Shown here piece by piece: positions 6,016 through 54,976 of a stretch of DNA of 64,000 bases (the first letter of the stretch is position 1; each line of letters begins with the position of its first letter). The notes under the pieces are model-generated. The model had not been told where the DNA came from. It saw only the letters and a list, made by a program, of their open reading frames with translations, and did not search any database. Position numbers and translations under genes: made by a program. Source of the DNA: Candidatus Omnitrophota bacterium (GTDB lineage: Bacteria > Omnitrophota > Gorgyraeia > Gygaellales > Profunditerraquicolaceae); contig CAWDSS010000016.1 of assembly GCA_963805065.1 (NCBI GenBank), positions 65,084-129,083 on the forward strand, in the 5' to 3' direction.

Positions 6016-6016
6016 T

Positions 6017-38248: not shown

Positions 38249-39331
38249 ATGGCGCATAAAATTACTTTAATACCAGGGGATGGCATTGGGCCTGAGATAA
38301 CCGAAGCTGCCAGAAGATGCATTGAGGCAACAGGCGTAAAAATTGATTGGGATTTAGCTTATGCAGGGGAAGAGGCAAAAATTAAATTCGGCGATTTGCT
38401 TCCCAGGCAAACTTTAGATTCCATAAAAAAGAACAAGGTGGCACTGAAGGGGCCGATTACAACGCCTATCGGCAGCGGGTTTCGCTCGGTTAATGTAGCT
38501 ATAAGGCATGCTTTAGATTTATATGCCTGTGTGCGGCCGGCGAAATCCTATCCCGGAGTAAAAAGTTATTACAAAGATATAGATTTGGTAATTATCAGGG
38601 AAAACAGCGAAGATTTATATGTGGGGATAGAATTTGAAGAGGGAAAGCCCGAGACAGTTGATCTTATTGGAAAAATCGAAAAATATTCGAAGAAGAGCAT
38701 ACGCCGCGATTCCGGCATTTCCATAAAACCGATTTCTAAATTTGCCACTGAACGAATCGTGGATTTTGCGTTTCGATACGCTATAGAATTCAACCGTAAA
38801 AAAATCACCGTAATCACAAAGGCGAATATTATGAAATTTACCGACGGGTTATTTCTTAAGACAGCCCGTGAAGTCGCTGCTCAATACGCGGGAAAAATTG
38901 AATTTAATGAAGCGTTGGTTGATAATATGGCTATGCAATTAGTGCAGAAACCGCATAATTTTGACGTATTAGTACTTCCTAACCTTTATGGCGATATACT
39001 TTCTGATTTGTGCGCCGGGCTTATCGGAGGCTTAGGTATTGCTCCCGGAGCCAACATCGGAGACGGTTTAGCTGTTTTTGAAGCAGTGCACGGCTCAGCG
39101 CCTAAATACAAAGGGATGAATAAGGTAAATCCTGCTGCAATGATTTTATCCGGTGTTTTAATGTTGAAGTACCTTAAAGAAGACAAGGCAGCGCAAAATT
39201 TAGAAAATGCAGTTAAAGATGTATTAGCTGAAGGAAAATCTGTGACCTACGATTTAAAACCTACCCCTAACGATCCATCAGCCGTAGGCACGAAAGAGAT
39301 GGCTTCCGCCATCATCTCCAAAATCAAATGA
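38249..39331 (+). CDS. icd: Isocitrate dehydrogenase (isocitrate/isopropylmalate dehydrogenase family)
   Basis: [46 protein letters not shown] plus the IDH-type insert ...[37 protein letters not shown]. Confidence 0.75.
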
Positions 39332-40251
39332 AAATATCTGTTATTGGAGCAGGAAATGTGGGGAGTACAACCGCGATGCGGTTAGCACAGGAAGCCATAG
39401 GCGATATTGTCCTGGTTGATGTAGTTAAAGGCTTGGCGCAAGGTAAGGTTTTTGACCTGGAAGATGCCCGTCCGATTACAAAAATTAATTATAAAATACA
39501 GGGCAGCGATGATATTACTTTAATGAAAGATTCAGATATCATTGTGGTAACTGCCGGCTTGGCTAGAAAGCCCGGGATGACCAGAGAAGAATTACTAAAT
39601 AAGAATTCGCAGATTCTAAAGGAAATTTGCCTAAACATAAAGAAATTAGCCAAAGATTCCATAGTTATTATAGTGACTAATCCACTGGACTTAATGACAT
39701 ATCTGGCCTTAAAGGAGACCATGTTCAGACCGCAAAAAATTTTTGGCATGGGGGTTAGCTTGGATGCTGCCAGGTTCGCCAACGTTATCAGTAGGGAATT
39801 AGATATACCTGCTACTGATATTGATGCCTGCGTAATCGGTAGTCACGGAGAAGCCATGCTTCCTTTACCCCGCTTTAGCAAAGTAAAAGGCGTTTCATTG
39901 GATGAATTCGTTGATGATGTAAGAATACAAACGCTGATTAATAAAACGGTAAATAGAGGTGCTGAAATTGTATCATTATTAGGCAGTGGCAGCGCATATT
40001 ACGCGCCTTCTGCAGCAGTAGCAGCGCTTGTTAAAACGGTTGCCAAAGATGAGAAAAGGACAGTGGGCGTATGCGCATACTTAAACGGTGAGTACGGAAT
40101 TAAAGATATTTGCTTAGGTGTTCCCTGCAGGATAGGCAGAAACGGAATAGAGAAAATTATTGAGCTGGATTTGAATAAACAAGAAATTGAGGCAATGCTA
40201 AAGTCAGCTGATTCAATCCGCTCAGCTTTAAAAAGTTTATACTTTTCTTAG
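39328..40251 (+). CDS. mdh: Malate dehydrogenase (LDH-like family)
   Basis: [22 protein letters not shown] (Arg at the substrate-selectivity position), VTNPLD, GSHG. Confidence 0.85.
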
Positions 40252-40258
40252 CATTTTT

Positions 40259-41548
40259 ATGGATTACGATCTAACAATTATAGGTGCTGGTTGGGCAGGC
40301 TTTAACGCAAGCTTAAGGGCAAAGGAGCTGGGTTTAAAAGTTTGCCTGATTGATGAATCGCAAATCGGCGGCACCTGCCTGAATAAAGGTTGTATCCCTA
40401 CCAAGGCTTTAATTCAATCAGCAAAAGTTTACTCCATTGTCAAGAAATCCCCCAGTTATGGTATAGATAGGGCTGATCCCGCGTTAAATTTCATACGAAT
40501 TCAGCAAAGAAAAGAAGAAATTATCCAACAGTTGCGTAGCGGCATGCAATTCATGCTTAAGGAAATTGATTTCCTGAATAGCGAGGCAAAGTTTGTTTCT
40601 AATCAAGAATTGATAGCAGGTGGCAAAACAATAAAATCAAGCTCTATAATCATTGCCTGCGGCTCCAAGGCCATGGAGCTTAAAAGTATAAAATTTGACG
40701 GCAAGAAGATATTATCAAGCGACGACATCCTCAATTTAAAAGAAATACCCAAGAGTCTACTGATTATTGGTGGAGGAGTCATCGGTTGTGAATTTGCCAG
40801 TTTGTTTACAATGCTTGGGAGCCATGTATCGATAGTAGAAATGATGCCGCATATTTTGCCTGGCGTAGATAAGGAAGTAGCCAGTAAACTGGAAACCGTG
40901 TATAAAAAACGAGGTTTAAAAATAAGCACTAATACCGATGCTACTACCGTAGATTTAACTAAATTTGATACGGTATTGGTTTGCATAGGCCGTTCACCTG
41001 ATACCCAGAGGTTGAATTTGCAAGATATGGGAATTAATTTAGATAAAAATAAAATTATCGTTGATGAGTACCTTAAGACCAGCGTCCCCAATATTTATGC
41101 TGCAGGAGACTGCACAGGAAAAATTATGCTTGCGCACTTTGCTGCTTATCAGGGCGTGGTTGCTGCTGAAAATATTGCCTGGCCGGACAATCTTAAAAAA
41201 GCTGATAACGCCGTTGTCCCCAATTGTATTTTTACTGATCCTGAAATAGCTGCGGTTGGCTTGACTGAGGATGAATCATCTGCCAAGGGTTTAGAAATAA
41301 GCGTGCAGAAGTTTAATTTCTTAGGTTCGGGAATGGCGCGTATTATGGATGAGTCCGAGGGTTTCATCAAGATAATTTCTGATAAGAAAACCGGTTATAT
41401 CCTGGGTGCATCTATAATCGGGCCTAAAGCAACCGAACTTATCGCCAGTTTAACCGTGGCCATTACAAACCGCCTGACTATCTCGCAAATAAAAAATACC
41501 ATTTTCGCACACCCGACTTTATCCGAATCAATTTTAGAAGCGCTTTAA
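40259..41548 (+). CDS. lpdA: Dihydrolipoyl dehydrogenase-family flavoprotein disulfide reductase
   Basis: IIGAGWAGF, GGTCLNKGCIPTK redox disulfide, GGGVIGCEFA, C-terminal HAHPTLSE. Confidence 0.75.
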   Translation: MDYDLTIIGAGWAGFNASLRAKELGLKVCLIDESQIGGTCLNKGCIPTKALIQSAKVYSIVKKSPSYGIDRADPALNFIRIQQRKEEIIQQLRSGMQFMLKEIDFLNSEAKFVSNQELIAGGKTIKSSSIIIACGSKAMELKSIKFDGKKILSSDDILNLKEIPKSLLIIGGGVIGCEFASLFTMLGSHVSIVEMMPHILPGVDKEVASKLETVYKKRGLKISTNTDATTVDLTKFDTVLVCIGRSPDTQRLNLQDMGINLDKNKIIVDEYLKTSVPNIYAAGDCTGKIMLAHFAAYQGVVAAENIAWPDNLKKADNAVVPNCIFTDPEIAAVGLTEDESSAKGLEISVQKFNFLGSGMARIMDESEGFIKIISDKKTGYILGASIIGPKATELIASLTVAITNRLTISQIKNTIFAHPTLSESILEAL

Positions 41549-41550
41549 TT

Positions 41551-42204
41551 ATGGAAATAAATATTTTTGATTTAAACCTGGTTGATTTTGAATGCGCCTG
41601 GAAGTTTCAAAAACAAATTTTTACTCAGGTTCAAAATAACTCTTTACGGCACGCATTAATTTTATGCCGGCATAAACCCGTTATCACTTTAGGAAGGGCA
41701 GGGCACAAAGAAAATATCCTGGCTACTAAAGAAGAATTGGAAAGAAAAGGTATAAGTGTCTATGCAATTGAGCGGGGAGGAGACGTAACTTATCATGGGC
41801 CTGGCCAATTGACGGTTTACCCTGTTTGTAACCTCACCTTTTTAAAAAAAGACATCCATTGGTTTTTGCGGCTCTTAGAAGAGGCGCTGATTTGCTGGAT
41901 TTCTGATTTTGGAATTAAGGCCGAGAGGAATCCCGGGTATAGCGGTGTTTGGGTCGAGGGTAAAAAAATTGCTTCTATCGGAATAGCAATCAGGCATTGG
42001 ATAACTTTTCACGGTATCAGCATAAATATTAAAAAGTCAGATTTAGACAATTTTAAACTCATAAAGCCTTGCGGACTGAACGTAGAAATGACTTGCCTTG
42101 AGGCGATTTTGGATAGAGAATTAGACATAGAGAATATAAAGAATAGCCTTATCAATCAATTTAGGGACACCCTTCCGATTGAATTACAGGGTGTCCCTGC
42201 TTAG
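41551..42204 (+). CDS. lipB: Octanoyltransferase
   Basis: ITLGRAGHKENIL, ERGGDVTYHGPGQLTVYP, GVWV.GKKIASIGI. Confidence 0.85.
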   Translation: MEINIFDLNLVDFECAWKFQKQIFTQVQNNSLRHALILCRHKPVITLGRAGHKENILATKEELERKGISVYAIERGGDVTYHGPGQLTVYPVCNLTFLKKDIHWFLRLLEEALICWISDFGIKAERNPGYSGVWVEGKKIASIGIAIRHWITFHGISINIKKSDLDNFKLIKPCGLNVEMTCLEAILDRELDIENIKNSLINQFRDTLPIELQGVPA

Positions 42205-42216
42205 GAGGAAAATACA

Positions 42217-42453
42217 ATGGTTAAAGTAGGATTGCCTGAGTTAGGCGAAGGAATCACAAAAGCCACGCTTTCTTATTGGTATTATAAAGTGGGGGAGAAG
42301 GTCAGTGAAAGGGACGATCTTGTGGAATTGACTACAGATAAAGCTACCTTTAACTTGCCAAGTCCCTGCACAGGCAGGCTTTCTGAGGTTTTCTACCAGG
42401 AAGGTGATACAGTGAATGTCGGAGAAATTTTAGCCATAATTGAAGAATCCTAA
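42217..42453 (+). CDS. Free-standing lipoyl-attachment domain protein (78 aa)
   Basis: LPELGEGITKATL...VELTTDKATFNLPSPCTGRL (DKA lipoyl-lysine motif). No E2 catalytic domain follows. Confidence 0.7.
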   Translation: MVKVGLPELGEGITKATLSYWYYKVGEKVSERDDLVELTTDKATFNLPSPCTGRLSEVFYQEGDTVNVGEILAIIEES

Positions 42454-42470: not shown

Positions 42471-44270
42471 ATGATAAGCCAATTTTGTGACCTTAGCAGA
42501 TATTATTATTTTAATCCGCATGCCATCCCGCCTTTAATTCTGGGAGTCTTTATACTGGTATTGGCAATTTATGTGTTTAACCAAAACAGAAGATCAAGCA
42601 TCAACATTGCTTTCTCGATTTTTGGGTTAAGTATATTTCTGTGGTTCTTTGGCAACGCCATGATTTATTTCAGTAAAGACGACACAAACATAATCAACTT
42701 TTGGTGCAGATATTGCGTAAATTTGGGCGTAGTCTTTATTCCTGCTAATATCTATTTTTTCAGTGTTTCAATGACAAAAACCCTTAATATAAATAAATGG
42801 CGTGTATCCTTGAGTTATTTAGTTTCCTCATTCTTATATCTTACGGTAATAAAAAGCAATTATTTTGTCACAGGCTTCAAAAAGTATTACTGGGGTTGGT
42901 ATTCTCAGTTTGGGCCCGCATCATTTATTTATCTTATTTTCTTTTTTATTGTATTGTTATTAAGCGTAAAAAGCTTTTTATCTGCCCTTAAAAAATTGCC
43001 TCCGGGAACTGAAAGAAACCGTGTCAAGTATGTTTTTATTGGCCTTGCCCTGGCCAATCTCGGTTCAATTGATATCCTTCCAGGTTATGGTATCTTAGTT
43101 TATCCTTTGGGTTGCGTTTTTATATTTATCTTCGCTATTCTTATTGCCTTTGCTATCGTTAAATACAAATTGATGGTTATGACGCCGGCTTTGGCTGCGG
43201 ATACGATTATTGATACTATGGCAGATTCGCTGGTAGTGTTTAGCTTGGAAGGCAATATCCTCATGGTTAATCGTGTGACAGGCGAGTTTTTGGGGTATAA
43301 ACAAGAGGAATTAATCGGAAGGCCAGTAAATATACTTTTTGCCGAGAAAGACTTGTTTTCTGGTGAAGGGCTTAAGGCACTAACCACGAAAGGCAGGATA
43401 TATAATTACGAATTAAATTACCTGACTAAAAATAATGATAGGATTCCTGTGAGCCTTAATGCCGGGGCAATAATCGACAGAGATGGCGCTGTTTTGGGTA
43501 TCGCCGGAATTGCCAGGGATATCCGGGAAACAAAGAAACTGCAGTCCCAACTTATCCAATCAGCAAAGATGTCAGCTGTAGGCCAGTTGGGTGCGGGTAT
43601 AGCCCATGAATTAAATAACCCGTTGGGCGGAATCTTGGGTTACGCACAATTTATGCTGGAAAAGATTAAACAGCCGGATTTTGGGCCGGAGGAATTCCGA
43701 TCCTGCAAAGGTTATATTGAATCCATTGAGAAAGAATCATCTCGTAGCAAGAATATTATCAGTAGTTTATTGAGGTTCTCCAGGAAATCCATGATTAATC
43801 AGCCGGAATTAATGGATATAAGTTTGGCTCTTGAGGATACACTTGCAATTATCGGCCATCAGATGGAAGTAAGCAATATTAAAATCACTACCAGCCTCCA
43901 GCCAGGTTTATCCAAGATTATGGGCGTGGTTAACCTCATACAGCAGGTTTTCGCCAACATAATCCTTAACGCCCAGCAGGCCATGCCAACTGGAGGGGAG
44001 CTAAAGATTACAGCGCAAAATATAATGGATGAAAAAACCAAAGTTACTTCTATGGTGAAAATTGAGTTTACTGATACAGGCTGCGGCATATCCGAAGAGA
44101 ACCTCAGCCACATTTTTGAGCCATTCTTTTCTACAAAGGCGAAAGAAAAGAGTGTAGGCTTGGGTTTGGCCATCTGCTACCAGATAATTCAGGACCATAA
44201 AGGCAAGATTGAAGTAAAAAGTCAAGTAGGCAAAGGTTCCACCTTTACTATTACTTTGCCAATTCGCTAA
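42471..44270 (+). CDS. Sensor histidine kinase: N-terminal 7TM sensor, PAS, HisKA, HATPase
   Basis: ~220-aa polytopic N-terminus with a KYYWGWY motif. PAS region (DSLVVFSLEGNILMVN...). H-box GAGIAHELNNPLG. Also NAQQAMP and DTGCGISE...GLGLAI. Confidence 0.85.
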   Translation: MISQFCDLSRYYYFNPHAIPPLILGVFILVLAIYVFNQNRRSSINIAFSIFGLSIFLWFFGNAMIYFSKDDTNIINFWCRYCVNLGVVFIPANIYFFSVSMTKTLNINKWRVSLSYLVSSFLYLTVIKSNYFVTGFKKYYWGWYSQFGPASFIYLIFFFIVLLLSVKSFLSALKKLPPGTERNRVKYVFIGLALANLGSIDILPGYGILVYPLGCVFIFIFAILIAFAIVKYKLMVMTPALAADTIIDTMADSLVVFSLEGNILMVNRVTGEFLGYKQEELIGRPVNILFAEKDLFSGEGLKALTTKGRIYNYELNYLTKNNDRIPVSLNAGAIIDRDGAVLGIAGIARDIRETKKLQSQLIQSAKMSAVGQLGAGIAHELNNPLGGILGYAQFMLEKIKQPDFGPEEFRSCKGYIESIEKESSRSKNIISSLLRFSRKSMINQPELMDISLALEDTLAIIGHQMEVSNIKITTSLQPGLSKIMGVVNLIQQVFANIILNAQQAMPTGGELKITAQNIMDEKTKVTSMVKIEFTDTGCGISEENLSHIFEPFFSTKAKEKSVGLGLAICYQIIQDHKGKIEVKSQVGKGSTFTITLPIR

Positions 44271-44419: not shown

Positions 44420-44650
44420 ATGGCAAAGGTTAAAGAGATTTGGACAGCCAAGGAGGTAGCTGAATACCTCAATATCCACCCTCTCACAGTCCATAAGTAT
44501 GCGCGCGAAGGCAAGATACCGGCATTTAAGATTGGCATGGACTGGAGGTTTCACAGAAAATTTATCGAGCGGTGGATTAAGGAAAAATCAGCTTACAACG
44601 CCAATGGCAAAGAACGCAGGAAGTCGCTGCTAAATGGAAACACAAGTTAA
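44420..44650 (+). CDS. Excisionase-family (MerR-superfamily) helix-turn-helix DNA-binding protein
   Basis: WTAKEVAEYLNIHPLTVHKYAREGKIPAFKIGMDWRF. 76 aa, with its own promoter and SD. Confidence 0.75.
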   Translation: MAKVKEIWTAKEVAEYLNIHPLTVHKYAREGKIPAFKIGMDWRFHRKFIERWIKEKSAYNANGKERRKSLLNGNTS

Positions 44651-44673: not shown

Positions 44674-45666
44674 ATGAAATCTTTTGCTTATATACTTAGC
44701 CCTATAAGTATTAAACAGCTTAAGAGCTTTAGCCCTGCCCTTAAGATTCTTCCTGATTTTGTGATTAAGGCAAGCCTGAAAAATAGCCAGCCTTTTAAAT
44801 CTTTGCGCTACAAAAACATACTCTCGGTTCAAGGGCAAGAAGTGCAAGGCGTGCTTATTGTCTGTCCGCTTTTGCCCCGGCAAATGCTAGAGTCAGAGGA
44901 AAGTTTTGTTTTGGATAAGATTATTGCTGCCGGCAGGGTTGCCCAGCAGCTTGGCGCAAAAATAATCGGTTTAGGCGGTTATACCGCCATAGTGGCAGAT
45001 AAAGGATTAACAGTAGCCAAAAAACTAAATATGCCTGTAACCACGGGAAAGGCGCTTACAGCCTGGTCAATATTTGAGGCAATTTATAGGACGGCACGCC
45101 TGAAAAATATCCGGCTCCAGGATTCTTCACTGACAATTGTAGGAGGAGGGTCTCTGGGTTACCTTTGCGCAGCTAAATTATCCGGTTATATTCCTAAGAT
45201 AACCATTACTGATGGCAATGGAAAAACAGACCGGCTTCATCAGTGTAAAGAACGTATTTTATGCGTTAAACAAGTAGAGATAATTATAGAAGATAATGTG
45301 CATAATGCCGTAAAGAATGCAGATTTTATAATTAATGCTTCACGGTCTTTGCAGGCGTTGTTTAGCCTTGATGAATTAAAAGCGGGTGCAGTGGTATGCG
45401 ATGTTTCCGTTCCTTGGAATATTGCCGATAGCCGAAACAACCGCCATGACATCACGGTCATAAGAGCTGGATTAGTCAAGGTCCCTGATGGCTGCGATAC
45501 CATTGTTCACGCTTCATTAGCAGAAACCATGCTTTTGACATTAGAGGAAAAGTTCACCAGCTATTCTTTGGGGGATAATATAAATTTGGATAAGCTTGAG
45601 GAAATCGCAGACTTGGCAGTGCGCCACGGTTTTGAAATCTGGGTTCCTCAGGCGCCGCTATTTTGA
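44674..45666 (+). CDS. Homologue of cyanobacterial long-chain acyl-ACP reductase (AAR family; often annotated shikimate/quinate dehydrogenase-like)
   Basis: Collinear, by my recall of the AAR sequence: CPLLPRQML...AQQLGAKIIGLGGYTAIV..., VTTGKALTAW, Rossmann-like TIVGGGSLG, and the C-terminal ASLAETMLLTLEE...LEEIADLAVRHGFE, which resembles FAEAMLLEFEG...MEAIGEASVRHGFQ. Confidence 0.6.
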   Translation: MKSFAYILSPISIKQLKSFSPALKILPDFVIKASLKNSQPFKSLRYKNILSVQGQEVQGVLIVCPLLPRQMLESEESFVLDKIIAAGRVAQQLGAKIIGLGGYTAIVADKGLTVAKKLNMPVTTGKALTAWSIFEAIYRTARLKNIRLQDSSLTIVGGGSLGYLCAAKLSGYIPKITITDGNGKTDRLHQCKERILCVKQVEIIIEDNVHNAVKNADFIINASRSLQALFSLDELKAGAVVCDVSVPWNIADSRNNRHDITVIRAGLVKVPDGCDTIVHASLAETMLLTLEEKFTSYSLGDNINLDKLEEIADLAVRHGFEIWVPQAPLF

Positions 45667-45691: not shown

Positions 45692-46126
45692 GTGATAGAA
45701 AATATAGAAGAATTGCAAAAAATATTACCGCAAAGATACCCGTTTTTGTTAATCGACAAAGTCACGCAATCATCACCGGGTAAATCCGTTACCGCCATAA
45801 AGAATGTTACAATTAATGACTGGTTTTTTGAGGGGCATTTCCCCGGTAATCCCGTGATGCCCGGGACGTTGATAATTGAGGCAATGGCGCAGGCATCAAT
45901 TTTACTTTATCACAGCGGCTTTGAAGATAAGCTGAAAAAAAGGCCGGATTATTATCTGGGTTCGGTTAAAGCAAGATTCCATCATCCGGTGGTACCGGGT
46001 GACCAGCTGAAACTTATCTCAGAGAGCGTTAAATTATTATCTACCGGAGCATTCGTTTCTGCTAAGGCCTTTGTGGAAGATAAATTAGTTGCCGAAGCGG
46101 ATTTGGTATTTGCCGTAAAGCCATGA
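45692..46126 (+). CDS. fabZ: FabZ-like 3-hydroxyacyl-ACP dehydratase (GTG start)
   Basis: ILPQRYPFLLIDKV...FFEGHFPGNPVMPGTLIIEAMAQ. AGGA lies 7 nt before the GTG at 45692. Confidence 0.8.
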   Translation: MIENIEELQKILPQRYPFLLIDKVTQSSPGKSVTAIKNVTINDWFFEGHFPGNPVMPGTLIIEAMAQASILLYHSGFEDKLKKRPDYYLGSVKARFHHPVVPGDQLKLISESVKLLSTGAFVSAKAFVEDKLVAEADLVFAVKP

Positions 46127-46178: not shown

Positions 46179-46949
46179 ATGGAAAAAAGATTATATCCAA
46201 GAGTAGCTTCTGTATTACCCATAGAAATAAAATTTGAAGACACAGCCAACAATGTTTTATATAGCGGAAAAGGCCAAGTAGTTAATCTTAGCGAGACAGG
46301 CCTATGTATTATGCTGGATAAAAATTTACCCGCCTCATTACAGGGCTCTGTCTTATTTGACCCATCGTCAAAGTATCCCTCTTTTAAAACAAAGGCCAAA
46401 GTAATTTGGAGCAATAAATTGGAAGGGAAAAATAAATTCCATTGCGGAATCGATTTCCTAGATTTGGATACTAAAGAAATAAAAGTTTTTAAGCAAATAC
46501 TTTCAGATAACGGCAGGAAGTCATTTGTATTTGAGAAAACAGTTTACCTTGGCGATACCAATGCAGAAGGCAATGTTTATTTTGCAAAATATCTTGATTG
46601 GCAGGGGATGGCAAGAGAGGAATTTTATAAACAAAACTTTCCTGTCGAAGCGTTAAAATCAGGGCTTAAGCTTATTACGGTGCATGCCTCGATAGATTAT
46701 AAGCATGAAGCCTTCCTGTTTGATGAAATCTTAATCGCAGTTTTTGTTGCGAATGTTAAAAAAGCTAGTTTAGATTTGATATTTAATTACAGGAATAAAG
46801 CAACCAAACAGTTATTAGCCACAGGGAGCCAAACAATAGCTTTTGGCGACTTTAAGGGCAATTTAATACCGATACCCAAAGAAATCAAGGAAATCGTTAA
46901 GTATTTCTTATCAGAAGAAACTACTAACAAAGCAGGAGACAAATTATAG
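46179..46949 (+). CDS. PilZ domain fused to a 4HBT/YbgC-type hotdog thioesterase
   Basis: N-terminal RLYPR (RxxxR) and NLSETG (D/NxSxxG) PilZ motifs. C-terminal half: VYLGDTNAEGNVYFAKYLDWQGMAREEF (YbgC-like). Confidence 0.7.
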   Translation: MEKRLYPRVASVLPIEIKFEDTANNVLYSGKGQVVNLSETGLCIMLDKNLPASLQGSVLFDPSSKYPSFKTKAKVIWSNKLEGKNKFHCGIDFLDLDTKEIKVFKQILSDNGRKSFVFEKTVYLGDTNAEGNVYFAKYLDWQGMAREEFYKQNFPVEALKSGLKLITVHASIDYKHEAFLFDEILIAVFVANVKKASLDLIFNYRNKATKQLLATGSQTIAFGDFKGNLIPIPKEIKEIVKYFLSEETTNKAGDKL

Positions 46950-46951
46950 AA

Positions 46952-49114
46952 ATGAATTTTTATTCTATAGCGCCTCTTTTTGCTTCCCTACTTTTCTTAT
47001 TATTAGGAATATTTTGTTTATCCGTAAGCAAAATAAGAAGGGAGGTTATTTTATTTACCTCTCTGTGTTTTGTTACTTTTATCTGGCAATTCAGTTGGTT
47101 TATTTTGTTTAATACAACTTCCGACAAAATTGCCTCGCTAGTCATAAAGATTGGCTATACTGGTATAATATTCATCCCCATCGCTTATTTTCATTTCATG
47201 GTTAGTTTCTTAAAAATCGAAAATTACAAAGTAATCTTAAGGATATCTTATGCAATAGCATTTATTTTAGTAATTCTATTATGGACATCAAAATATTTTG
47301 TGAATGGCTATTATAAGTTCTATTGGGGTTATTATCCAAAGGCAGGCCTTTTACATCCCCTTCACTTGCTGCAAGTTTTCACGGTTACTATGTGGATGTT
47401 GTATTTGTTATGGAATAGTATAAATAAATTTAAGCTGGAACCGATGAAATATAACCAGCTAAAATACGTAATGTTAGGCATACTCTTTTATTTCCCCGCC
47501 GCCTCTGATTACCTTGTCAATTATGGCGTAGAGTTTTACCCCAAAGGTTTTATTTCCCTGTCTATTTTTGCCATAATTACTACATATGCCATTATACGTT
47601 ATCGCCTGATGGATTTAAAAATTGCGGTTACCAGGATCGGTATATTTATTTTAGTCTATACCTTACTGCTTGGTCTTCCTTTTGCCGTAGCTGTAGGGTT
47701 AAAGGGGTGGTTAGTTGATAAATTCGGGCCGGGATGGTGGATGTTTCCCTTAATATTAATGGCTGTCCTTGCTACCGTCGGGCCTTTTATTTACATTTTC
47801 CTGCAAAAAAAAGCAGAAGATAGGTTGTTACGGGAGCAAAGGAAATATCAGGAAACGCTTAAGCAGGCCTCGGTAGGCATGACTCGCATTAGAAACCTCG
47901 ATAGGCTGCTGGATTTGATAGCGCACATTGTGACAAAAACAGTAAAGATTTCCTACGCCGCGATATACCTTTACAATAAAGACACAAATGAATATGTCCT
48001 GCAAGTCAGCCGTGACAAAGGAAGAATACCAATACCCAAAGTAAATCCTATTAATCCGCTGGTTGCCTGGATTATGGTTGAACGTGAACCGCTAATTTAC
48101 GAAGAAGTAAAACGCAAAATGGAAGATGCCAAAGATGAAACTTGCAAGCTTCTTGAAGAAAATATGCGACTTTTAACTGCAACTGTGATTATTCCCAGTT
48201 TCCTGGAAGATAAATTTATCGGCTTCTTTGTCCTGGGTGACAAGCTTTCAGGGCAAATTTACACTCCGGATGACCTGAATGTTTTTCAGGTCCTCGCCAG
48301 CCAGGCTGCCCTTGCCATTGAAAACGCGCAATTTTATGAAGACGCAAAAGAGATGCAGGAGCAGATTGCGCAGGCAGAGAAAATGGCTACCATAGGAACC
48401 ATGGCTGATGGATTGTCCCATCAGATAAACAACCGTTTTTATGCGCTTTCTCTGATTGCGGGAGATACCATTGATACCATAAAAACTACAGATACTACCA
48501 AATGCACTCCTGAAGTAAGAACAATGATTGACGAGATTAACCATGCGCTTGAACGTATTCAGACTAATGTTATGCAGGGTGGAGAAGTGGTAAAAGGCAT
48601 TTTAAAATATTCCAAAAAAGGCAGCGGGCAATTTGAGGCGCTGGATTTGGACGCAATCATAGACAATACCTTAGAAATGGTTCAGTACAAGGTAAAGTTG
48701 TCGGAAATTGACCTTGTGCGCGATTATAAGGATATTCCCAAAATAAAGGGGAACATGACGCAATTACAGGAAGTGTTTTTCAATTTTATTGATAATGCCT
48801 ATGATGCGATTGTAGAGCGGCGTACGACACTAAAAGAAGATGGCTACCGCGGCAGGATTATTATTTCAGCCCGGCCAAAGGATAAATTCCTGGAAATTAT
48901 TGTTGAAGATAACGGTATGGGAGTAAAAGATTTCAACAATACAAAAATTTTCACGCCATTTTTTACCACTAAAACCTCATCCAATAAGGGCACAGGGCTA
49001 GGCCTTTACGTAATCAAGCGCATAATCACCGATACGCATAAAGGCACAATAAGCTTTGAATCCAAACACGGCATCGGCACCCGCTTCATTCTGGAACTTC
49101 TCACCGCCAAATAG
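46952..49114 (+). CDS. Sensor histidine kinase: N-terminal 7TM sensor (paralogue of 42471), GAF, HisKA-like, HATPase
   Basis: Polytopic N-terminus with KFYWGYY. GAF-like region (ISYAAIYLYNKDTNEYVL...FIGFFVLGDK). H-box MADGLSHQINN. Also DNGMGV...GTGLGLY. Confidence 0.85.
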   Translation: MNFYSIAPLFASLLFLLLGIFCLSVSKIRREVILFTSLCFVTFIWQFSWFILFNTTSDKIASLVIKIGYTGIIFIPIAYFHFMVSFLKIENYKVILRISYAIAFILVILLWTSKYFVNGYYKFYWGYYPKAGLLHPLHLLQVFTVTMWMLYLLWNSINKFKLEPMKYNQLKYVMLGILFYFPAASDYLVNYGVEFYPKGFISLSIFAIITTYAIIRYRLMDLKIAVTRIGIFILVYTLLLGLPFAVAVGLKGWLVDKFGPGWWMFPLILMAVLATVGPFIYIFLQKKAEDRLLREQRKYQETLKQASVGMTRIRNLDRLLDLIAHIVTKTVKISYAAIYLYNKDTNEYVLQVSRDKGRIPIPKVNPINPLVAWIMVEREPLIYEEVKRKMEDAKDETCKLLEENMRLLTATVIIPSFLEDKFIGFFVLGDKLSGQIYTPDDLNVFQVLASQAALAIENAQFYEDAKEMQEQIAQAEKMATIGTMADGLSHQINNRFYALSLIAGDTIDTIKTTDTTKCTPEVRTMIDEINHALERIQTNVMQGGEVVKGILKYSKKGSGQFEALDLDAIIDNTLEMVQYKVKLSEIDLVRDYKDIPKIKGNMTQLQEVFFNFIDNAYDAIVERRTTLKEDGYRGRIIISARPKDKFLEIIVEDNGMGVKDFNNTKIFTPFFTTKTSSNKGTGLGLYVIKRIITDTHKGTISFESKHGIGTRFILELLTAK

Positions 49115-49160: not shown

Positions 49161-49270
49161 GAAGCCCACCCAGGCTAAAGCCCAGGGTTTCCCTCCTGTC
49201 GGAGGGCAAGCTTTGGGCGGAATGCCCAAGCGGCCAAGGCTTATCCGCGCCCTGAAAGGGCGCGGTTTTA
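49161..49270 (+). ncRNA. Candidate structured RNA (unclassified leader, riboswitch or sRNA) with its own promoter and intrinsic terminator
   Basis: Extended -10 TGCTATAAT (49152-60) with TTGAAA at 49135-40. A GC-rich segment with three hairpins: CCCTCC-TGTC-GGAGGG (49191-206), TTTGGGC-GGAAT-GCCCAAG (49212-30) and CCGCGCCC-TGAAA-GGGCGCGG (49245-65), followed by TTTTA. Confidence 0.5.
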
Positions 49271-49327
49271 TGCCGCGGGGTATGAAAAAAAACTATGGAT
49301 AACTTGTTATTAAATGGGGTGAAAAAT

Positions 49328-49711
49328 ATGGCGAAATTATTGATAGTGGACGATGAAGCTGATGTCCGTGAATTTGCGGCAAAATTCTTTAAACGGCGCA
49401 AAATCGAAGTGATGATTGCCGGTAGCGGTGAAGACGCCTTAACTGCCTTAGAAAAGTATAAGGCAGATTTAGTGCTTCTTGATATTAAGATGGAAGGCAT
49501 TGACGGCATAGAAACCTTAAGGCGCATAAGAGAAAGAGATAAAGATGCGCGCGTGATAATGGTCACCGGCAGAAAACCCGATGAATCAGGCTCGTTTGAA
49601 AAATGCCGTGAGTTAGGCGCCATAGATTATATTCACAAGCCCCTTGAACTGGATGAGCTGGAAAGAGTAGTGTTACGAGAGCTGTCCCAAGACTCCCCGA
49701 ATCAAACATAA
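49328..49711 (+). CDS. Single-domain CheY-like response regulator
   Basis: MAKLLIVDDE...DLVLLDIKMEG...MVTG...IHKP. The ORF-track start at 49295 is probably too early. Confidence 0.85.
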   Translation: MAKLLIVDDEADVREFAAKFFKRRKIEVMIAGSGEDALTALEKYKADLVLLDIKMEGIDGIETLRRIRERDKDARVIMVTGRKPDESGSFEKCRELGAIDYIHKPLELDELERVVLRELSQDSPNQT

Positions 49712-50877
49712 TGAAAATCGATTACAAGAAAGAGTTAGAAGGCGCATCAAAAACCATGATTTTGGTGCACGAGCCGCAAACCCTGATAAGGATGATTGTG
49801 CGCATGATTGTGCAAAGGGTAGAGGTTGAACATGCTGCTATCCTTTTGCATGACCAGTTCAAGGATTCTTATATCCTGACTGTTTCACGCGGCGCAGCAG
49901 GGTTAAAAATACCTCCGGGATTCGCGCGCATGGATTCTGATAACCCTCTGATTTATTTTTTCAGGGAAAATCTGGTCAAGCAAATTTTTAATGACGGCGC
50001 GGTTGTCTATGATGAAGCCTTAAAGATATTAAAAAGCAAGAAAATCAAGCCTGAACTGGAAGAGAAGCTAAAGAAAGCTTTGTATCAAATGGAAATATTT
50101 GAGGCAGTTATCTGCATCCCCAGTTACTTCAGGGATGAATTGCTGGGCCTGCTTCTGTTGGGCCGCAAAAAGAACAGGAAAAAGTTTGACCAGCATGAAT
50201 TGGATTTTTTTGTGGCCTTGGCTTCGGACGTTGCCATGGCCATCCGTAATGCCAGGTTGTTCTCAGAGCTTGAACAAGAGCTCCAAAAAAAGCAACGCCT
50301 TTTTGTGCATACTACAATTGCCTTGGCAGCTGCCATTGATGCCAAAGACCATTACACGCATGGCCACACATCAAGGGTAACCAATTTAAGCCTTGAGATT
50401 GCCAAGTACATGAAGGAAAAGAACAGGAATGTCTTTAATGATAAGTTTTTGGAGCATCTCCATATCGCGGGGCTCTTACATGACATAGGTAAAATCGGAA
50501 TCCCTGAGTCCATATTAAATAAAGACGGCCCTTTAAATGATACAGAATCTAAAAAAATGCAAGAGCATCCCTCTGTAGGAGCATCTATATTGCAGCCGAT
50601 AAAGGAACTAGAAGAGGCTATCCTGGGCGTAAAATACCATCATGAAAAATACGACGGCTCAGGCTACCCCGAGGGCCTTAAAGGCGAACAAATTCCTCTC
50701 ATTGCCGCTATTATTTCTGCAGCAGATACATTTGATGCCATGACTTCAGACAGGCCATACCGCCGCGCTTTAACCAAGGCAGAGGCAGTTGAAGAAATAA
50801 AACGTGTGAAAGGTAAGCAGCTTAGCCCTGAAGTCGCAGATGTAATAGTCGAGCTTTTTAAACTCCAGAAAATCTAA
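49711..50877 (+). CDS. GAF domain plus HD-GYP domain protein (putative c-di-GMP phosphodiesterase)
   Basis: HTSRVTNL, LLHDIGKIGIP, HHEKYDGSGYPEGLKG, ADTFDAMTSDRPYR. Confidence 0.85.
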   Translation: MKIDYKKELEGASKTMILVHEPQTLIRMIVRMIVQRVEVEHAAILLHDQFKDSYILTVSRGAAGLKIPPGFARMDSDNPLIYFFRENLVKQIFNDGAVVYDEALKILKSKKIKPELEEKLKKALYQMEIFEAVICIPSYFRDELLGLLLLGRKKNRKKFDQHELDFFVALASDVAMAIRNARLFSELEQELQKKQRLFVHTTIALAAAIDAKDHYTHGHTSRVTNLSLEIAKYMKEKNRNVFNDKFLEHLHIAGLLHDIGKIGIPESILNKDGPLNDTESKKMQEHPSVGASILQPIKELEEAILGVKYHHEKYDGSGYPEGLKGEQIPLIAAIISAADTFDAMTSDRPYRRALTKAEAVEEIKRVKGKQLSPEVADVIVELFKLQKI

Positions 50878-50880
50878 TTC

Positions 50881-51993
50881 ATGCAACCGCGCCGCATAAT
50901 CTTAATGTATATTTCAGAAGTCTCCGGACATCACAGCGCGACTCTCGCTATTGAAAAGGCGATTAAAATGCTATCTTGCGATACGCAAATTTTAAATATC
51001 AACGCCTTTAATTATACAAATCCCATTTCCGAAAAAATAGTCAATAAGATTTACATGGGCATTATCAAAATCACGCCTAAGGTATGGGATTACCTTTATG
51101 ATAATCCCAAGGTTGTAGAGAGAATATCTAAAATGAAGGAAAAGCTGCATAAGTTTAATTCCCTGAAACTGAAAAATCTTTTTGATGATTTTAATCCGGA
51201 CGCAGTCCTTTGCACCCAGGCATTCCCCTGCGGGATGGTAGCGGATTATAAGAAAGAATTTAATTCCCAAATTCCCTTGGTTGCGGTGCTCACGGATTAT
51301 GTCCCGCATTCATATTGGGTTTATGATACCGTGGATTACTATGTTACGCCTTCTGAAGAGGTATCACGGCGCCTGGTAAAAAAAGGGGTTGCGGCAGAAA
51401 AAATAAAATCACTGGGGATTCCTATTGACCCCAAATTTAACAAACCGCAAAACAAGGAATCTATCAAGCGTAAATTAAAGCTAAGCACGCAATTGCCAAC
51501 CATATTAATCATGGGGGGAGGCCAGGGATTGGGGCCGATTAAAACTATCATCAAATCATTGGAAAAGAGCCTTAAGCCTATTCAGGAAATTATCGTTACC
51601 GGCACCAATAAAAAGCTATATAAATCCCTGAAAAGAAAAATTAAAAAATATAAAAATAAAATCTTGCTTTTCAGGTATGCCGATAATATTGAAGAATTAA
51701 TGGCTGCTTCTGATATTATTATCAGTAAGCCCGGAGGGGTGACGACTGCAGAAGTCCTGGTAATGAATTTGCCTATGGTCATTGTAAAACCCATACCCGG
51801 CCAGGAAGCCAATAATACCGCGTATCTCACACAGAAAGAGGCAGCAATCAAAATAGATGACCCCAAGAAAACAAACCAGGCAATTGAGGATTTATTAAAG
51901 CACGCTGATAAGTTAAGGCATTTGCGGGAAGCTGCCAGCCGCATAAGTAAACCGCAGGCGAGCCTCGATATAGCCAGGCTCTTATTAAGGTAA
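50881..51993 (+). CDS. MGDG-synthase/UgtP-like diacylglycerol glycosyltransferase (GT28)
   Basis: N-terminal GHHSA...-type MGDG_synth pattern. C-terminal GGGQGLGP...SKPGGVTTAEVL...PGQEANN. Confidence 0.75.
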   Translation: MQPRRIILMYISEVSGHHSATLAIEKAIKMLSCDTQILNINAFNYTNPISEKIVNKIYMGIIKITPKVWDYLYDNPKVVERISKMKEKLHKFNSLKLKNLFDDFNPDAVLCTQAFPCGMVADYKKEFNSQIPLVAVLTDYVPHSYWVYDTVDYYVTPSEEVSRRLVKKGVAAEKIKSLGIPIDPKFNKPQNKESIKRKLKLSTQLPTILIMGGGQGLGPIKTIIKSLEKSLKPIQEIIVTGTNKKLYKSLKRKIKKYKNKILLFRYADNIEELMAASDIIISKPGGVTTAEVLVMNLPMVIVKPIPGQEANNTAYLTQKEAAIKIDDPKKTNQAIEDLLKHADKLRHLREAASRISKPQASLDIARLLLR

Positions 51994-51995
51994 CC

Positions 51996-52862
51996 GTGTA
52001 TAATTATATACTTTACAGGATTGGCCAGTTTATCGCACTTAATACACCGTTAAAAATCGGGTATAGGTTGGCGATATTTTTTTCCGATGTGCATTATTTA
52101 TTTGCCGGTAAAGACCGCCGCAGTGTAACTGGCAACCTCAAAGCAATATTTCCTCAAAAATCAGGCAAAGAAATTGCCGCAATCAGGATATGGATGTTCA
52201 GGAATTTTGCCAAATACCTGGTGGATTTCTTCCGTTTCCAGAATTTGGATAAGGAATACATAAGGAGCAATATCAAAATAGAAAACATAGATTATTTTGA
52301 CCAAGCCCTTAAAAAGGGCAAGGGTGTAATTATCCTAACCGCGCATTTGGGAAATTGGGAGCTTGGCGGAGTGGTAATTGCTCTTTTAGGGTATCCGTTG
52401 TGGGCAGTGGTCCTTCCGCATAGGCATCAACAGGTAAATAAATTTTTTAATTTTCAACGAGAAAGTAAGGGGATAGGCATAATAGAGCTGGGAAAAGCTG
52501 TCAGGCTGTCGCTAAATGTTTTGAAACAAAATAAAGCCCTGGCATTGGTTGGCGACAGAGATTTTACGGAAACCGGAATTGCCTTAGACTTTTTTGGCAA
52601 ACCCACTCTTTTCCCTGAAGGCCCGGCAGCATTTGCATTAAAAACAGGAGCGGCTATAGTCCCCGGATTTATGTTTAGAAACAGGGATGACACCTTTACT
52701 TTAAAAATTGAAAAGCCTCTTGAATTTGTCGCCACGGGAGATAAAATACAGGATGAGACCCAGATAATCTTAAAATATAAAGGTATTTTTGAGGATTATA
52801 TTAAAAGGTTTCCCGATCAGTGGTATATGTTCAGGCAATTCTGGATACAGGAAAAAAAATGA
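51996..52862 (+). CDS. LpxL/HtrB-family lipid acyltransferase (lysophospholipid acyltransferase superfamily)
   Basis: ILTAHLGNWELGG (HX4-type acyltransferase region), LVGDRDF, PEGPAAFALKTGAAIVP. Confidence 0.7.
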   Translation: MYNYILYRIGQFIALNTPLKIGYRLAIFFSDVHYLFAGKDRRSVTGNLKAIFPQKSGKEIAAIRIWMFRNFAKYLVDFFRFQNLDKEYIRSNIKIENIDYFDQALKKGKGVIILTAHLGNWELGGVVIALLGYPLWAVVLPHRHQQVNKFFNFQRESKGIGIIELGKAVRLSLNVLKQNKALALVGDRDFTETGIALDFFGKPTLFPEGPAAFALKTGAAIVPGFMFRNRDDTFTLKIEKPLEFVATGDKIQDETQIILKYKGIFEDYIKRFPDQWYMFRQFWIQEKK

Positions 52863-53530
52863 AGACCTGTGTAATCATTCCTACATACAATGAAGCTAAG
52901 GCCATAGGGGATTTAGTGTGTTCGATACGCAGCCAGAATTTTGAAGTGGTTGTGGTAGACGATGGTTCGGCTGATAAAACTTTCAAGATAGCCAGCGATT
53001 GCGGAGCAACTATTTTACGCAATGAAAAAAACCTGGGTAAGGGAGCGTCTTTAGTAAAGGGTTTTAATTACGCTTTGGCTAATAATTTTGACGCAGTGGT
53101 TACTATGGATGGTGACGGGCAGCATCTTGCCGAAGACATTCAGCAATTTATAAACGTGGCAAAAAATTCGGACAGCGATATCTTTATCGGTAACAGGATG
53201 CACAAGCCCAGAAATATGCCCTGGGTACGCGTTTTAACCAACAACGCAATGTCCTGGTTTATATCGGGTCTTGTGAAGCAAAAGATTCCCGATTCGCAGT
53301 GCGGGTTTAGGCTTATTAAGAAAGAAGCATTAAAAAAAATTGATTTTATAACCTCCAATTTTGAGATTGAATCTGAAATGCTTATTAAGGGTGCGCGTTT
53401 AGGTTTTAAAATTGAGTCCGTTTCCATAAAAACTGTTTACTCGGGAGAGAAAAGCAGGATTAATCCCTTTGTTGATACGTTTAGATTTTTACGATTCGCT
53501 ATAGGAGAGCTATGGATTTCCAAACGTTAA
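52859..53530 (+). CDS. Family 2 glycosyltransferase (polyprenol-phosphate sugar transferase-like)
   Basis: MKTCVIIPTYNEA, VVVDDGSADKT, MDGDGQH, QCGFR. The ATG overlaps the preceding stop (ATGA). Confidence 0.8.
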   Translation: MKTCVIIPTYNEAKAIGDLVCSIRSQNFEVVVVDDGSADKTFKIASDCGATILRNEKNLGKGASLVKGFNYALANNFDAVVTMDGDGQHLAEDIQQFINVAKNSDSDIFIGNRMHKPRNMPWVRVLTNNAMSWFISGLVKQKIPDSQCGFRLIKKEALKKIDFITSNFEIESEMLIKGARLGFKIESVSIKTVYSGEKSRINPFVDTFRFLRFAIGELWISKR

Positions 53531-54223: not shown

Positions 54224-54730
54224 ATGTTAGCAATAATTTTGGTTTTTATGGGAATATTATTAAGATTTGCACCGCACGCGCCAAATTTCACGCCAGTTGC
54301 AGCGATTGCATTATTCGGCGGGGCATATTTAAATAAAAGAAGTTCTCTCATCGTCCCATTGGCCCTTATGATAATCAGCGATTATTTATTGGGGTTACAT
54401 AATGTGGTGTTTTTTACCTGGGGAGGGTTTGTCTTGGTTGCCTTGTTAGGTACGCGCCTTAAGGGCAATAAAGGCGTTGCCAGGACCATAACCTTTTCTT
54501 TGGCATCAGCAATTATATTTTATATCGTGTCAAACTTTGGCGTGTGGTTAATGGGTTGGTATCCTCCCACCTTAAATGGCCTTATTGATTGTTATGCCTT
54601 AGCAATTCCTTTCTTTAGGACCTTTACGCTGGCAACATTGATATATACTGCCGTATTTTTCGGCATTTATGAATTAGCCGCGCATTTTGTTAAACAGACA
54701 AAGTTCGCGCATGCTCTTTTAACAAAATAA
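54224..54730 (+). CDS. Small polytopic membrane protein of unknown function (a link to B12 uptake is suggested by adjacency only)
   Basis: 168 aa, ~5-6 hydrophobic helices, PNFTPVAAIALFGGAY motif, AGGAGG SD. Confidence 0.5.
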   Translation: MLAIILVFMGILLRFAPHAPNFTPVAAIALFGGAYLNKRSSLIVPLALMIISDYLLGLHNVVFFTWGGFVLVALLGTRLKGNKGVARTITFSLASAIIFYIVSNFGVWLMGWYPPTLNGLIDCYALAIPFFRTFTLATLIYTAVFFGIYELAAHFVKQTKFAHALLTK

Positions 54731-54740
54731 TTTTTTGTCT

Positions 54741-54885
54741 TATATGGACTAGGGAAGGCCGTAAAAGCGGCCACAGTCCCGCTGCTGTATAGAGGGACGA
54801 AATTCCGCAATAAGCCACTGGTGTTTTAGCCGGGAAGGCGCGGAAGAGTAGGATGATCTCTTGAGTCAGAAGACCTAGGCATATA
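54741..54885 (+). promoter_or_regulatory. Cobalamin (B12) riboswitch aptamer
   Basis: P1 TATATG/CATATA; AGGGAAGGCCGTAAAAGCGGCCACAGTCCCGCTGCTGT; GCCACTG; GGGAAGGC; B12-box-like GAGTCAGAAGACCTAGGC. Confidence 0.85.
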
Positions 54886-54938
54886 ATCAAAAATATAATA
54901 ACCATTTGGTCCGTGGACAGGCCAAGGGCTAAGAGGGT

Positions 54939-54976
54939 AACCCTTGATGTCAATTGTGATATCAAGGGTTTTTTAT
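54939..54976 (+). terminator. Intrinsic terminator acting as the riboswitch expression platform
   Basis: AACCCTTGAT (54939-48) pairs with ATCAAGGGTT (54961-70), followed by TTTTATTTT. Confidence 0.8.

Follow-up and report, generated by a model that had tools for sequence, protein, structure and literature searches.

A PilZ–hotdog thioesterase fusion and its conserved HisKA_7TM sensor partner in an uncultivated Omnitrophota bacterium

The 64,000-nucleotide stretch of DNA analysed here (hereafter the window; Candidatus Omnitrophota bacterium, GenBank assembly GCA_963805065.1, contig CAWDSS010000016.1, positions 65,084 to 129,083 of the forward strand) encodes a protein of 256 amino acids (46179..46949, + strand) that appears to be a cytoplasmic two-domain enzyme, in which a PilZ domain is joined through a short helix to a hotdog thioesterase (TE) of the CalE7/DynE7 type. 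We refer to this protein as PilZ-TE. Its gene is followed directly by that of a sensor histidine kinase with a membrane-embedded seven-transmembrane (7TM) domain, and a sensor of this kind proved to be the conserved partner of the thioesterase in a broad range of bacteria. The literature that we searched contained no description of a PilZ-thioesterase, of a ketosynthase fused to PilZ or to a response-regulator receiver (REC) domain, or of a thioesterase-HisKA_7TM pair, and a thioesterase output is absent among the PilZ architectures mentioned in the available part of a PilZ survey (10.1101/814665). PilZ-TE can therefore be described as a PilZ effector with a previously undescribed enzymatic output, located in an undescribed conserved gene pair with a 7TM sensor; a preliminary description of this DNA had already considered it an unusual output for cyclic di-GMP (c-di-GMP) signalling, and the rarity of the fusion bears this out. 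We propose, tentatively but as a plausible reading, that the enzyme and the kinase form a synthase-sensor loop linked to c-di-GMP.

The PilZ-TE open reading frame (ORF) begins with an ATG that is preceded, at a distance of 5 nt, by the G-rich Shine-Dalgarno sequence AAAGGGGGG. Both domains score above their curated Pfam gathering cut-offs (PF07238, PilZ; PF13279, 4HBT_2), a match that is far beyond chance, and Pfam, AlphaFold2 (AF2) and Foldseek agree on the PilZ-hotdog fusion that had been proposed; the full-length AF2 model has a mean predicted local distance difference test (pLDDT) score of 84.3. The PilZ domain (46179..46514, aa 1-112) matches PF07238 over aa 2-108, or positions 1-100 of the 102 in the profile, with 44.9 bits (cut-off 22.5, E 1.5e-11). 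Its predicted fold is a six-strand barrel (aa 9-21, 26-37, 41-46, 55-60, 69-80 and 87-95) followed by a C-terminal helix (98-111), and a model of this domain alone reached a pLDDT of 85.3 and a predicted TM-score (pTM) of 0.74. Both halves of the PilZ signature are intact: RLYPR (RxxxR; aa 4-8, nt 46188-46202) and NLSETG ((D/N)xSxxG; aa 36-41, nt 46284-46301). Their spacing is normal, as had been noted, with NLSETG placed 28 residues after R8 and not the 29 originally counted.

Comparison with solved structures points in the same direction. A profile built from the N-terminal halves of eight to ten homologues retrieved from the PDB the c-di-GMP-binding protein MotI/YpfA (5vx6, E 2.4e-4) and the Alg44 PilZ domain (4xrn/4rt0), with RxxxR and (D/N)xSxxG in register with the motifs of both. 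When the PilZ-only model was searched with Foldseek, the best 46 matches were all PilZ structures, mostly c-di-GMP complexes, among them Alg44, YcgR, PP4397, MapZ, MotI, MrkH and BcsA. Across the fused family R4, R8 and G41 are invariant or nearly so; RxxxR is retained in 48 of the 53 PilZ domains of fused relatives and the full canonical motif pair in 34. Profile, motifs and predicted fold thus support the N-terminal half as a canonical PilZ domain, which we predict to bind c-di-GMP.

The C-terminal domain (46515..46949, aa 113-256) matches 4HBT_2 over aa 124-238 with 60.2 bits (cut-off 25.5, E 3.6e-16). Its best sequence and fold matches are the enediyne thioesterases CalE7, DynE7, SgcE10 and EspE7 (PDB 2w3x, 2xfl/2xem, 4i4j and 9ccr); enediyne thioesterases make up the first six PDB sequence matches (DynE7 7.9e-15, SgcE10 1.8e-12, 5vpj 7.1e-12, CalE7 2.2e-11 and EspE7 9.2e-11 being the closest) as well as the first 30 Foldseek matches. 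Target-normalised TM-scores (TMt) to 5vpj, 2xfl, 2w3x, 9ccr and 4i4j lie between 0.82 and 0.91, and the order of relatives given by Foldseek agrees with that of the sequence search. The segment VYLGDTNAEGNVYFAKYLDWQGMAREEF (aa 122-149) carries the core motif D126-E147 (46554-46619), which shares with the CalE7-type enzymes the pattern (E/D)TNxxGNVY(F/Y)..YLxWQGxxRE, where Asn replaces the usual catalytic Asp; N128 (46560-46562), Y138 and R146 (46614-46616) align with CalE7 N19, Y29 and R37. The preliminary description had seen a catalytic-type Asp in the DTN of this motif. When E. coli YbgC is aligned pairwise with the domain, its D16 stands opposite D126 and its catalytic D18 opposite N128, so that this assignment was mistaken; the YbgC sequence used is identical to PDB 5kl9 in 132 of 134 residues, with an identical N-terminus.

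Conservation of this motif is strict. The pattern DTNxEGNxYF..WQGxARE is invariant across 18 aligned fused homologues (D126, T127, N128, E130, G131, N132, Y134, F135, W141, Q142, G143, A145, R146 and E147), and Y138 is present here and in 16 of the 18. Among the pattern-matched family members listed, all have Arg at the position of R146 and all except one have Asn at that of N128. Arg37 and Tyr29 of CalE7 reportedly have catalytic roles, and the deposited EspE7 R35A mutant agrees with such a role for the Arg. Acid-free Asn/Tyr/Arg enediyne thioesterases form family TE15 of the ThYme classification (PMC4147253), and CalE7-type enzymes release carrier-protein-bound chains (PMC9992847, PMC3107222). 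By analogy, the domain is predicted to act on acyl chains tethered to an acyl carrier protein (ACP) through Asn, Tyr and Arg, without a catalytic Asp. It differs from the characterised enzymes in being only ~30% identical to them, in its fusion to PilZ and in lacking an enediyne polyketide synthase (PKS) partner, and it belongs to a two-component and c-di-GMP neighbourhood in uncultivated, non-actinobacterial phyla. Sequence and model together therefore indicate a CalE7/DynE7-type (TE15-like) hotdog enzyme in a different functional setting.

A search for the same architecture elsewhere showed that the two-domain layout recurs. With a word-indexed search, 16-18 homologues that have both domains were retrieved (33-68% identity), and an exhaustive profile search of 1.84 billion representatives (50%-identity clusters) gave 74 matches below 1e-30, ~34 of them covering both domains; both domains were present in 50 of 213 retrieved proteins. 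The fusion thus represents a real but small family, whose members carry no database label beyond 'thioesterase family protein'. Variant architectures include PilZ-PilZ-TE, PilZ-x-TE, REC-TE and TE-TE. In a rough neighbour-joining tree of the TE domain, PilZ-fused and solo forms are interleaved, and PilZ was therefore gained or lost several times.

The kinase gene next to PilZ-TE (46952..49114, +), which the preliminary description overlooked, begins with an ATG 2 nt past the PilZ-TE stop codon and encodes a HisKA_7TM-GAF-HATPase_c sensor histidine kinase (Pfam HisKA_7TM 40.2 bits, with GAF and HATPase_c). To place this pair in context, we assembled loci from exact look-ups, a scan of species-representative genomes and a metagenome scan; the resulting 122 loci (designated L and a number below) collapse to 91 at 90% thioesterase identity. 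Their genes were mapped with home-built hidden Markov models made from few sequences, with which Pfam spot-checks agreed. In 59 of the 67 non-redundant loci with at least 500 bp of downstream sequence (88%), a HisKA_7TM-type domain starts within 400 bp 3' of the TE on the same strand, a count that includes TEs with or without PilZ from about ten phylum-level lineages; in five of the eight exceptions such a domain lies 0.5-2.3 kb away. Our 7TM model is not promiscuous, as it had just two matches across the 64 kb of the window. The gaps between TE and 7TM genes are mostly -4 to +100 nt, and stop and start codons commonly overlap (-4 or -1 nt), with many overlaps of the ATGA type. Judging from record titles, the lineages represented in the TE family comprise Omnitrophota, Endomicrobiia/Elusimicrobiales, Saganbacteria, Obscuribacter and Nitrospirota, and further Planctomycetales, Anaerolineaceae, Lentisphaeria, Falkowbacteria and Atribacterota.

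The output domain of the partner varies. Pfam assigned the tested partners as HisKA_7TM-GAF-(HisKA)-HATPase_c or, in Endomicrobiia, as HisKA_7TM-GAF-HD-GYP; in L013 (5928-8045), L014 and L101 the TE partner is such a HisKA_7TM-GAF-HD-GYP protein with no kinase, and in these three loci the 7TM sensor, as read from its domains, is wired straight to c-di-GMP hydrolysis. L101 pairs this form with a solo TE. The TE-7TM pairing thus holds whatever the output domain of the sensor, and genes encoding only a 7TM domain adjoin the sensor kinase in relatives' loci. The relevant passages of PMC5847659 and PMC6944256 treat HisKA_7TM as a sensor domain and nothing more, and they name no ligand for it; according to the former, the domain occurs in bacteria and haloarchaea. 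The preliminary description had instead linked PilZ-TE to a flanking HD-GYP gene. An intact HD-GYP gene does lie nearby, as described below; the conserved partner of the TE is, however, the 7TM kinase and not the HD-GYP gene.

Directly upstream of the TE, many loci carry a FabF-type ketosynthase (KS) and a small dedicated ACP. The TE of the window has no adjoining ACP gene; in relatives a dedicated ACP either is encoded immediately 5' of the TE or forms one protein with it, as ACP-TE or ACP-PilZ-TE. Regulatory domains recur on these lipid-synthesis enzymes. An Omnitrophica metagenome-assembled genome (MAG; PCWA01000092.1, L023 4004-5719) encodes a REC domain fused to a FabF-type KS, and in L121 (545-1450) a 7TM gene comes after a REC-TE fusion (P0139); it is unusual for lipid-synthesis enzymes to be the direct output of a two-component system. 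A Nitrospirae MAG (JACQBZ010000076.1, L030) encodes a FabF-equivalog KS with two N-terminal PilZ domains (3059-5329) and then, in a single ORF, ACP-PilZ-TE (5347-6384), followed by a 7TM hybrid kinase; here c-di-GMP receptor domains are therefore present on both enzymes of a minimal KS-ACP-TE cassette. A second kind of fusion between PilZ and a condensing enzyme is found in L006 (4772-8664; Joint Genome Institute (JGI) Ga0063162_1012555), which encodes in order an ACP, a PilZ-KASIII (FabH-like) protein, a short 7TM fragment, PilZ-TE and a 7TM gene. L039 holds an ACP-TE fusion. In L099 (JGI Ga0268278_1001535), with the order REC, KS, ACP, TE and PilZ, the PilZ domain lies just 3' of the TE instead of preceding it, with the 7TM kinase after another ~1 kb. 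In L028 the gene immediately 5' of the TE (340-1635; Pfam) encodes an outer-membrane channel of the FadL/TodX family, which serves hydrophobic compounds, and our home-built FadL model also found FadL in this position in L019, L083, L086 and L111. One of the few loci without a 7TM partner, L004 (3203-5815, - strand; Atribacterota MAG JBMCVI010000023.1), has next to PilZ-TE a GT2 glycosyltransferase with MshEN domains, another c-di-GMP receptor type.

Genes for c-di-GMP hydrolysis form a less constant part of these neighbourhoods. REC genes lie downstream of the module in relatives, and the order TE, 7TM histidine kinase, REC and GAF-HD-GYP seen in the window also occurs in L081, L083, L094, L103 and L107; REC-HD-GYP fusions are found in L010, L022, L025 and L090. 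Altogether, HD-GYP is present in ~30% of the loci with enough sequence, as REC-HD-GYP, as REC then GAF-HD-GYP, or as 7TM-GAF-HD-GYP. In the window, a stand-alone REC (49295..49711, +; Pfam Response_reg 97.6 bits) is followed by a GAF-HD-GYP protein (49711..50877, +; Pfam HD_5 128.3 bits, with HD and GAF), a predicted c-di-GMP phosphodiesterase in whose translation the motifs HD (LLHDIGK) and HHEKYDGSGYP are intact.

One explanation for this arrangement is a feedback loop, in which the TE would free a hydrophobic acyl product (a fatty acid, 3-oxo acid or methyl ketone) from acyl-ACP. The acyl-ACP would be shaped in the window by an adjoining FabZ-like dehydratase and an acyl-ACP-reductase-like enzyme and supplied in relatives by the FabF-type KS and dedicated ACP. 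Binding of c-di-GMP to PilZ would allosterically gate acyl release, a regulation that we infer whatever its sign may be. The membrane-embedded 7TM domain of the co-translated kinase would sense the TE product or a resulting lipid change, and the kinase could then act through the stand-alone REC and the GAF-HD-GYP phosphodiesterase to reset c-di-GMP. In a bolder version, which we regard as unlikely, the TE, together in many relatives with the FabF-type KS and dedicated ACP, would be the synthase of an unknown diffusible lipid signal under control of c-di-GMP or REC, again a fatty acid, 3-oxo acid or methyl ketone, and the 7TM-GAF kinase or 7TM-GAF-HD-GYP protein would be its receptor, feeding back through HD-GYP.

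Several observations weigh against the proposed loop and call for caution. Inter-domain geometry in PilZ-TE is uncertain (full-length AF2 pTM 0.56), and in about one third of fused relatives the second PilZ motif departs from the canonical form, mostly by Gly in place of Ser. The TE lacks PilZ in 69 of the 91 non-redundant loci; given that most family members lack it and that it was repeatedly gained or lost, c-di-GMP control appears to be optional for the module. HD-GYP is not enriched beside PilZ-fused TEs relative to solo ones (about 4/11 vs 8/28), and a predicted enrichment of this kind was accordingly rejected. The 64-kb window contains no ORF with a GGDEF motif, so that synthesis of c-di-GMP is unsupported there, and no c-di-GMP riboswitch. 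The characterised CalE7-type enzymes serve polyketide synthases and not signalling (PMC4147253, PMC9992847), the upstream KS scores high enough in L030 and L035 to count as a FabF equivalog and could serve bulk lipid synthesis, and the REC and PilZ fusions on enzymes fit a pure-output role equally well. All organisms with the TE module are uncultivated.

The most serious alternative, although in our view a somewhat unlikely one, takes up these last points: the 7TM-GAF kinase would sense a membrane or environmental cue not made by the TE, and the TE and, in relatives, the KS would be effectors that remodel membrane or envelope lipids, with PilZ (via c-di-GMP) or REC (via phosphorylation) as their switch. 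Signalling in the window would then pass from kinase to REC to HD-GYP, and through lowered c-di-GMP to PilZ-TE, alongside co-directional glycolipid and lipid A genes. Receiver-type domains do sit on the enzymes themselves (PilZ-TE, REC-TE, PilZx2-FabF, REC-FabF and PilZ-KASIII), as this scheme would have it, the KS of L030 and L035 scores as a FabF equivalog, and genes for an MGDG (monogalactosyldiacylglycerol)-synthase-like glycosyltransferase, a lipid A acyltransferase and a GT2 protein closely follow REC and GAF-HD-GYP. These downstream lipid genes are, however, unconserved in relatives. We favour the product as 7TM ligand because the TE pairs with the 7TM input domain of the sensor, not with a REC or output domain, and does so whatever the output: receiver-less solo TEs keep the tight, often overlapping pairing, even with the kinase-less 7TM-HD-GYP of L101. 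The sensor moreover has no periplasmic domain, and the dedicated small ACPs, ACP-TE fusions, adjoining FadL channels and 7TM-only paralogues that accompany the module point to a discrete product over bulk lipid. An improbable further scenario is that PilZ-TE tunes the kinase mainly by protein contact, with catalytic turnover secondary, the hotdog reporting the acyl-ACP or acyl-CoA state and PilZ reporting c-di-GMP, in the manner of RpfF-RpfC or MapZ-CheR1. Binding of RpfF to RpfC and signalling by catalytically dead RpfF are documented (PMC4504480), the partner-binding PilZ adaptor complex MapZ-CheR1 (5xly) is among the Foldseek neighbours, and the overlapping stop and start codons suggest co-translation in a fixed ratio. 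The TE and 7TM distance matrices also correlate in a rough mirror-tree test (r = 0.48; 0 of 2000 permutations as high), but this is expected for any co-inherited operon pair, from which physical interaction is not separable. The invariance of N128, R146 and the surrounding motif argues instead for selection on catalysis, and the dedicated upstream KS and ACP genes imply a real substrate flux.

Two other readings concern the nature of the thioesterase itself, and to both we give very little credence. The preliminary description was right to see a hotdog thioesterase in the C-terminal half, on the evidence of Pfam and Foldseek, but its assignment to the YbgC type did not hold. On a literal YbgC reading, the protein would be a housekeeping YbgC/4HBT-type acyl-CoA thioesterase with a catalytic Asp, to which PilZ and the neighbours are incidental; fold, Pfam clan and an aligning glycine-rich N-terminal segment are indeed shared, the hotdog superposes on YbgC (Foldseek E about 1e-8), and there are weak matches to the YbgC models of NCBIfam. 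Those matches fall far below the cut-offs (TIGR02799 43.3 vs 141.35; NF008065 29.5 vs 185; the subfamily model TIGR00051 40.5 vs 68.7), E. coli YbgC was found by the PDB sequence search with an E-value of only 0.012 against 7.9e-15 for DynE7, the position of the catalytic Asp18 is taken by Asn128, no tol-pal genes lie near PilZ-TE (its neighbours being HTH_17, reductase-like, FabZ, 7TM kinase, REC and HD-GYP genes), and a 7TM neighbour is kept in 88% of loci; we therefore rejected the assignment. It is just as improbable that the TE releases the product of a polyene or enediyne-like polyketide pathway, as might be suggested by its nearest relatives in sequence and fold, DynE7, SgcE10, CalE7 and EspE7, and by one homologue labelled 'enediyne biosynthesis thioesterase' by JGI. 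Neither in the window nor in the other loci examined does the TE have an iterative type I PKS (PKSE) or other enediyne genes nearby, on which ground this pathway too was rejected; it is surrounded by genes for a sensor kinase, REC and HD-GYP, with no more than one FabF-type KS and an ACP.

The proposed synthase-sensor loop would match in its logic two kinds of known systems that are built from unrelated parts. In the CqsA/CqsS and LqsA/LqsS pairs, the gene of an autoinducer synthase adjoins that of a sensor kinase with several membrane passes, whose ligand is a hydrophobic ketone; CqsA is a pyridoxal phosphate (PLP)-dependent acyl-CoA transferase, and neither system has homology to the genes described here or a PilZ or HD-GYP link. 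The diffusible signal factor (DSF) system of the rpf genes offers a closer parallel. RpfF acts on acyl-ACP as both dehydratase and thioesterase, produces a fatty-acid signal and is restrained by RpfC, a multi-pass kinase; RpfG is a REC-HD-GYP protein, and RpfH resembles the sensor membrane domain only (PMC4504480). Both systems would combine an acyl-ACP thioesterase enzyme, a multi-pass kinase without a large periplasmic domain and a REC/HD-GYP arm lowering c-di-GMP; in both, the membrane sensor kinase and REC/HD-GYP are encoded next to the putative synthase, and the 7TM-only genes are like rpfH. The window furthermore pairs a FabZ-like dehydratase with a thioesterase, the two activities of RpfF, although the FabZ neighbour is found in this genome only. 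Only REC and HD-GYP are homologous, however. The synthase here would be a hotdog and not a crotonase protein (no crotonase gene, the RpfF family, was found among the domain assignments of the window), the sensor has the HisKA_7TM-GAF layout and not that of a 5-TM hybrid kinase, with an input domain unrelated to that of RpfC, and feedback would run through PilZ and c-di-GMP. The resemblance is thus one of functional logic only, analogous and not homologous.

If the bolder version were true, the module would be a non-homologous counterpart of DSF and CAI-1 quorum sensing, with a signal spread over Omnitrophota, Elusimicrobiota, Nitrospirota, Planctomycetota, Saganbacteria, Melainabacteria and bacteria of the Candidate Phyla Radiation (CPR). 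Production of this signal would be gated directly by c-di-GMP (PilZ) or phosphorylation (REC), the receptor would feed back on c-di-GMP through HD-GYP, and the orphan HisKA_7TM sensor domain would gain its first ligand class. The more modest claim would also be of consequence. Known PilZ effectors such as BcsA, Alg44, YcgR, MotI and MapZ, which are the best structural and profile neighbours of the domain described here, share its canonical barrel with RxxxR and (D/N)xSxxG, and in them the second messenger acts directly on an enzyme or machine; their targets are polysaccharide synthases, flagellar motors, chemotaxis enzymes and transcription factors, whereas the output here would be a thioesterase of lipid or polyketide metabolism. 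Direct control of an acyl-ACP thioesterase, and in relatives of ketosynthases, would extend c-di-GMP signalling into lipid and small-molecule biosynthesis. The TE-7TM kinase pair is a concrete, testable candidate for what the orphan HisKA_7TM domain detects, and it gives a hint that many uncultivated phyla, in which cell-cell signalling is uncharacterised, possess a lipid-based circuit for signalling or homeostasis. As the module proteins are small and soluble except for the kinase, the key claims could be tested in vitro.

The genes around the module all lie on the + strand, in the order 7TM-like PAS kinase, HTH_17, reductase-like, FabZ, PilZ-TE, 7TM-GAF histidine kinase, hairpin, REC and GAF-HD-GYP. 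The first is a second sensor kinase (42471..44270; Pfam PAS, HisKA and HATPase_c), the N-terminus of which is 33% identical to the 7TM region of the partner kinase over 159 aa (E 2e-20) and, taken alone, falls below the Pfam HisKA_7TM threshold. The module recurrently starts with a gene for a small HTH_17 DNA-binding protein (44420..44650 in the window; Pfam HTH_17 56.6 bits); many loci have it upstream of the TE, among them L002, L009, L010, L040, L078 and L121. The acyl-ACP-reductase-like protein (44674..45666; PigE N-terminal domain/AAR family) stays under the NCBIfam cut-offs for PigE (147 bits) and AcACP_reductase (66 bits); its PDB matches are 4ppm (6.8e-20), 6jzz (3.3e-9) and 6jzu (1.4e-8), the nearest solved relatives being PigE (4ppm) and a cyanobacterial acyl-ACP reductase. 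The FabZ-type 3-hydroxyacyl-ACP dehydratase (45692..46126; 144 aa, as in the gene call of L041) scores 153.6 bits with NF000582 (cut-off 113) and 153.5 with TIGR01750 (cut-off 155.15); it may be the housekeeping copy. The reductase-like gene and FabZ fill the slot held by KS and ACP in relatives, and they do so in the window only, being absent from all other loci examined, including that of the 68%-identical homologue, which reads HTH_17, PilZ-TE, 7TM histidine kinase and REC; we accordingly rejected them as conserved partners.

Between the kinase and REC lies a terminator-like hairpin found by pattern match (49245..49265, +; 9-bp stem with 8 GC pairs and a T-rich tail), the only convincing one in our hairpin scan; in a promoter scan, sites were no more frequent than in shuffled sequence. 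The genes 3' of GAF-HD-GYP, for an MGDG-synthase-like glycosyltransferase, a lipid A biosynthesis acyltransferase and a GT2 protein, are separated by gaps of 0-4 nt or overlap, which suggests that c-di-GMP turnover and envelope-lipid genes are co-transcribed over 49295-53530 (+). Upstream of the module, positions 38249-42453 (+) are syntenic with 823-5114 of L002, the locus of a 54%-identical homologue (P0005), and carry genes for isocitrate dehydrogenase, malate dehydrogenase, dihydrolipoyl dehydrogenase, LipB and a lipoyl-carrier protein; the two organisms are therefore related. Further downstream, a full-length cobalamin riboswitch (54720-54896, +; Rfam RF00174, 80.8 bits) directly precedes an ORF of 708 aa (54944-57070), which may encode a B12-related transporter or receptor.

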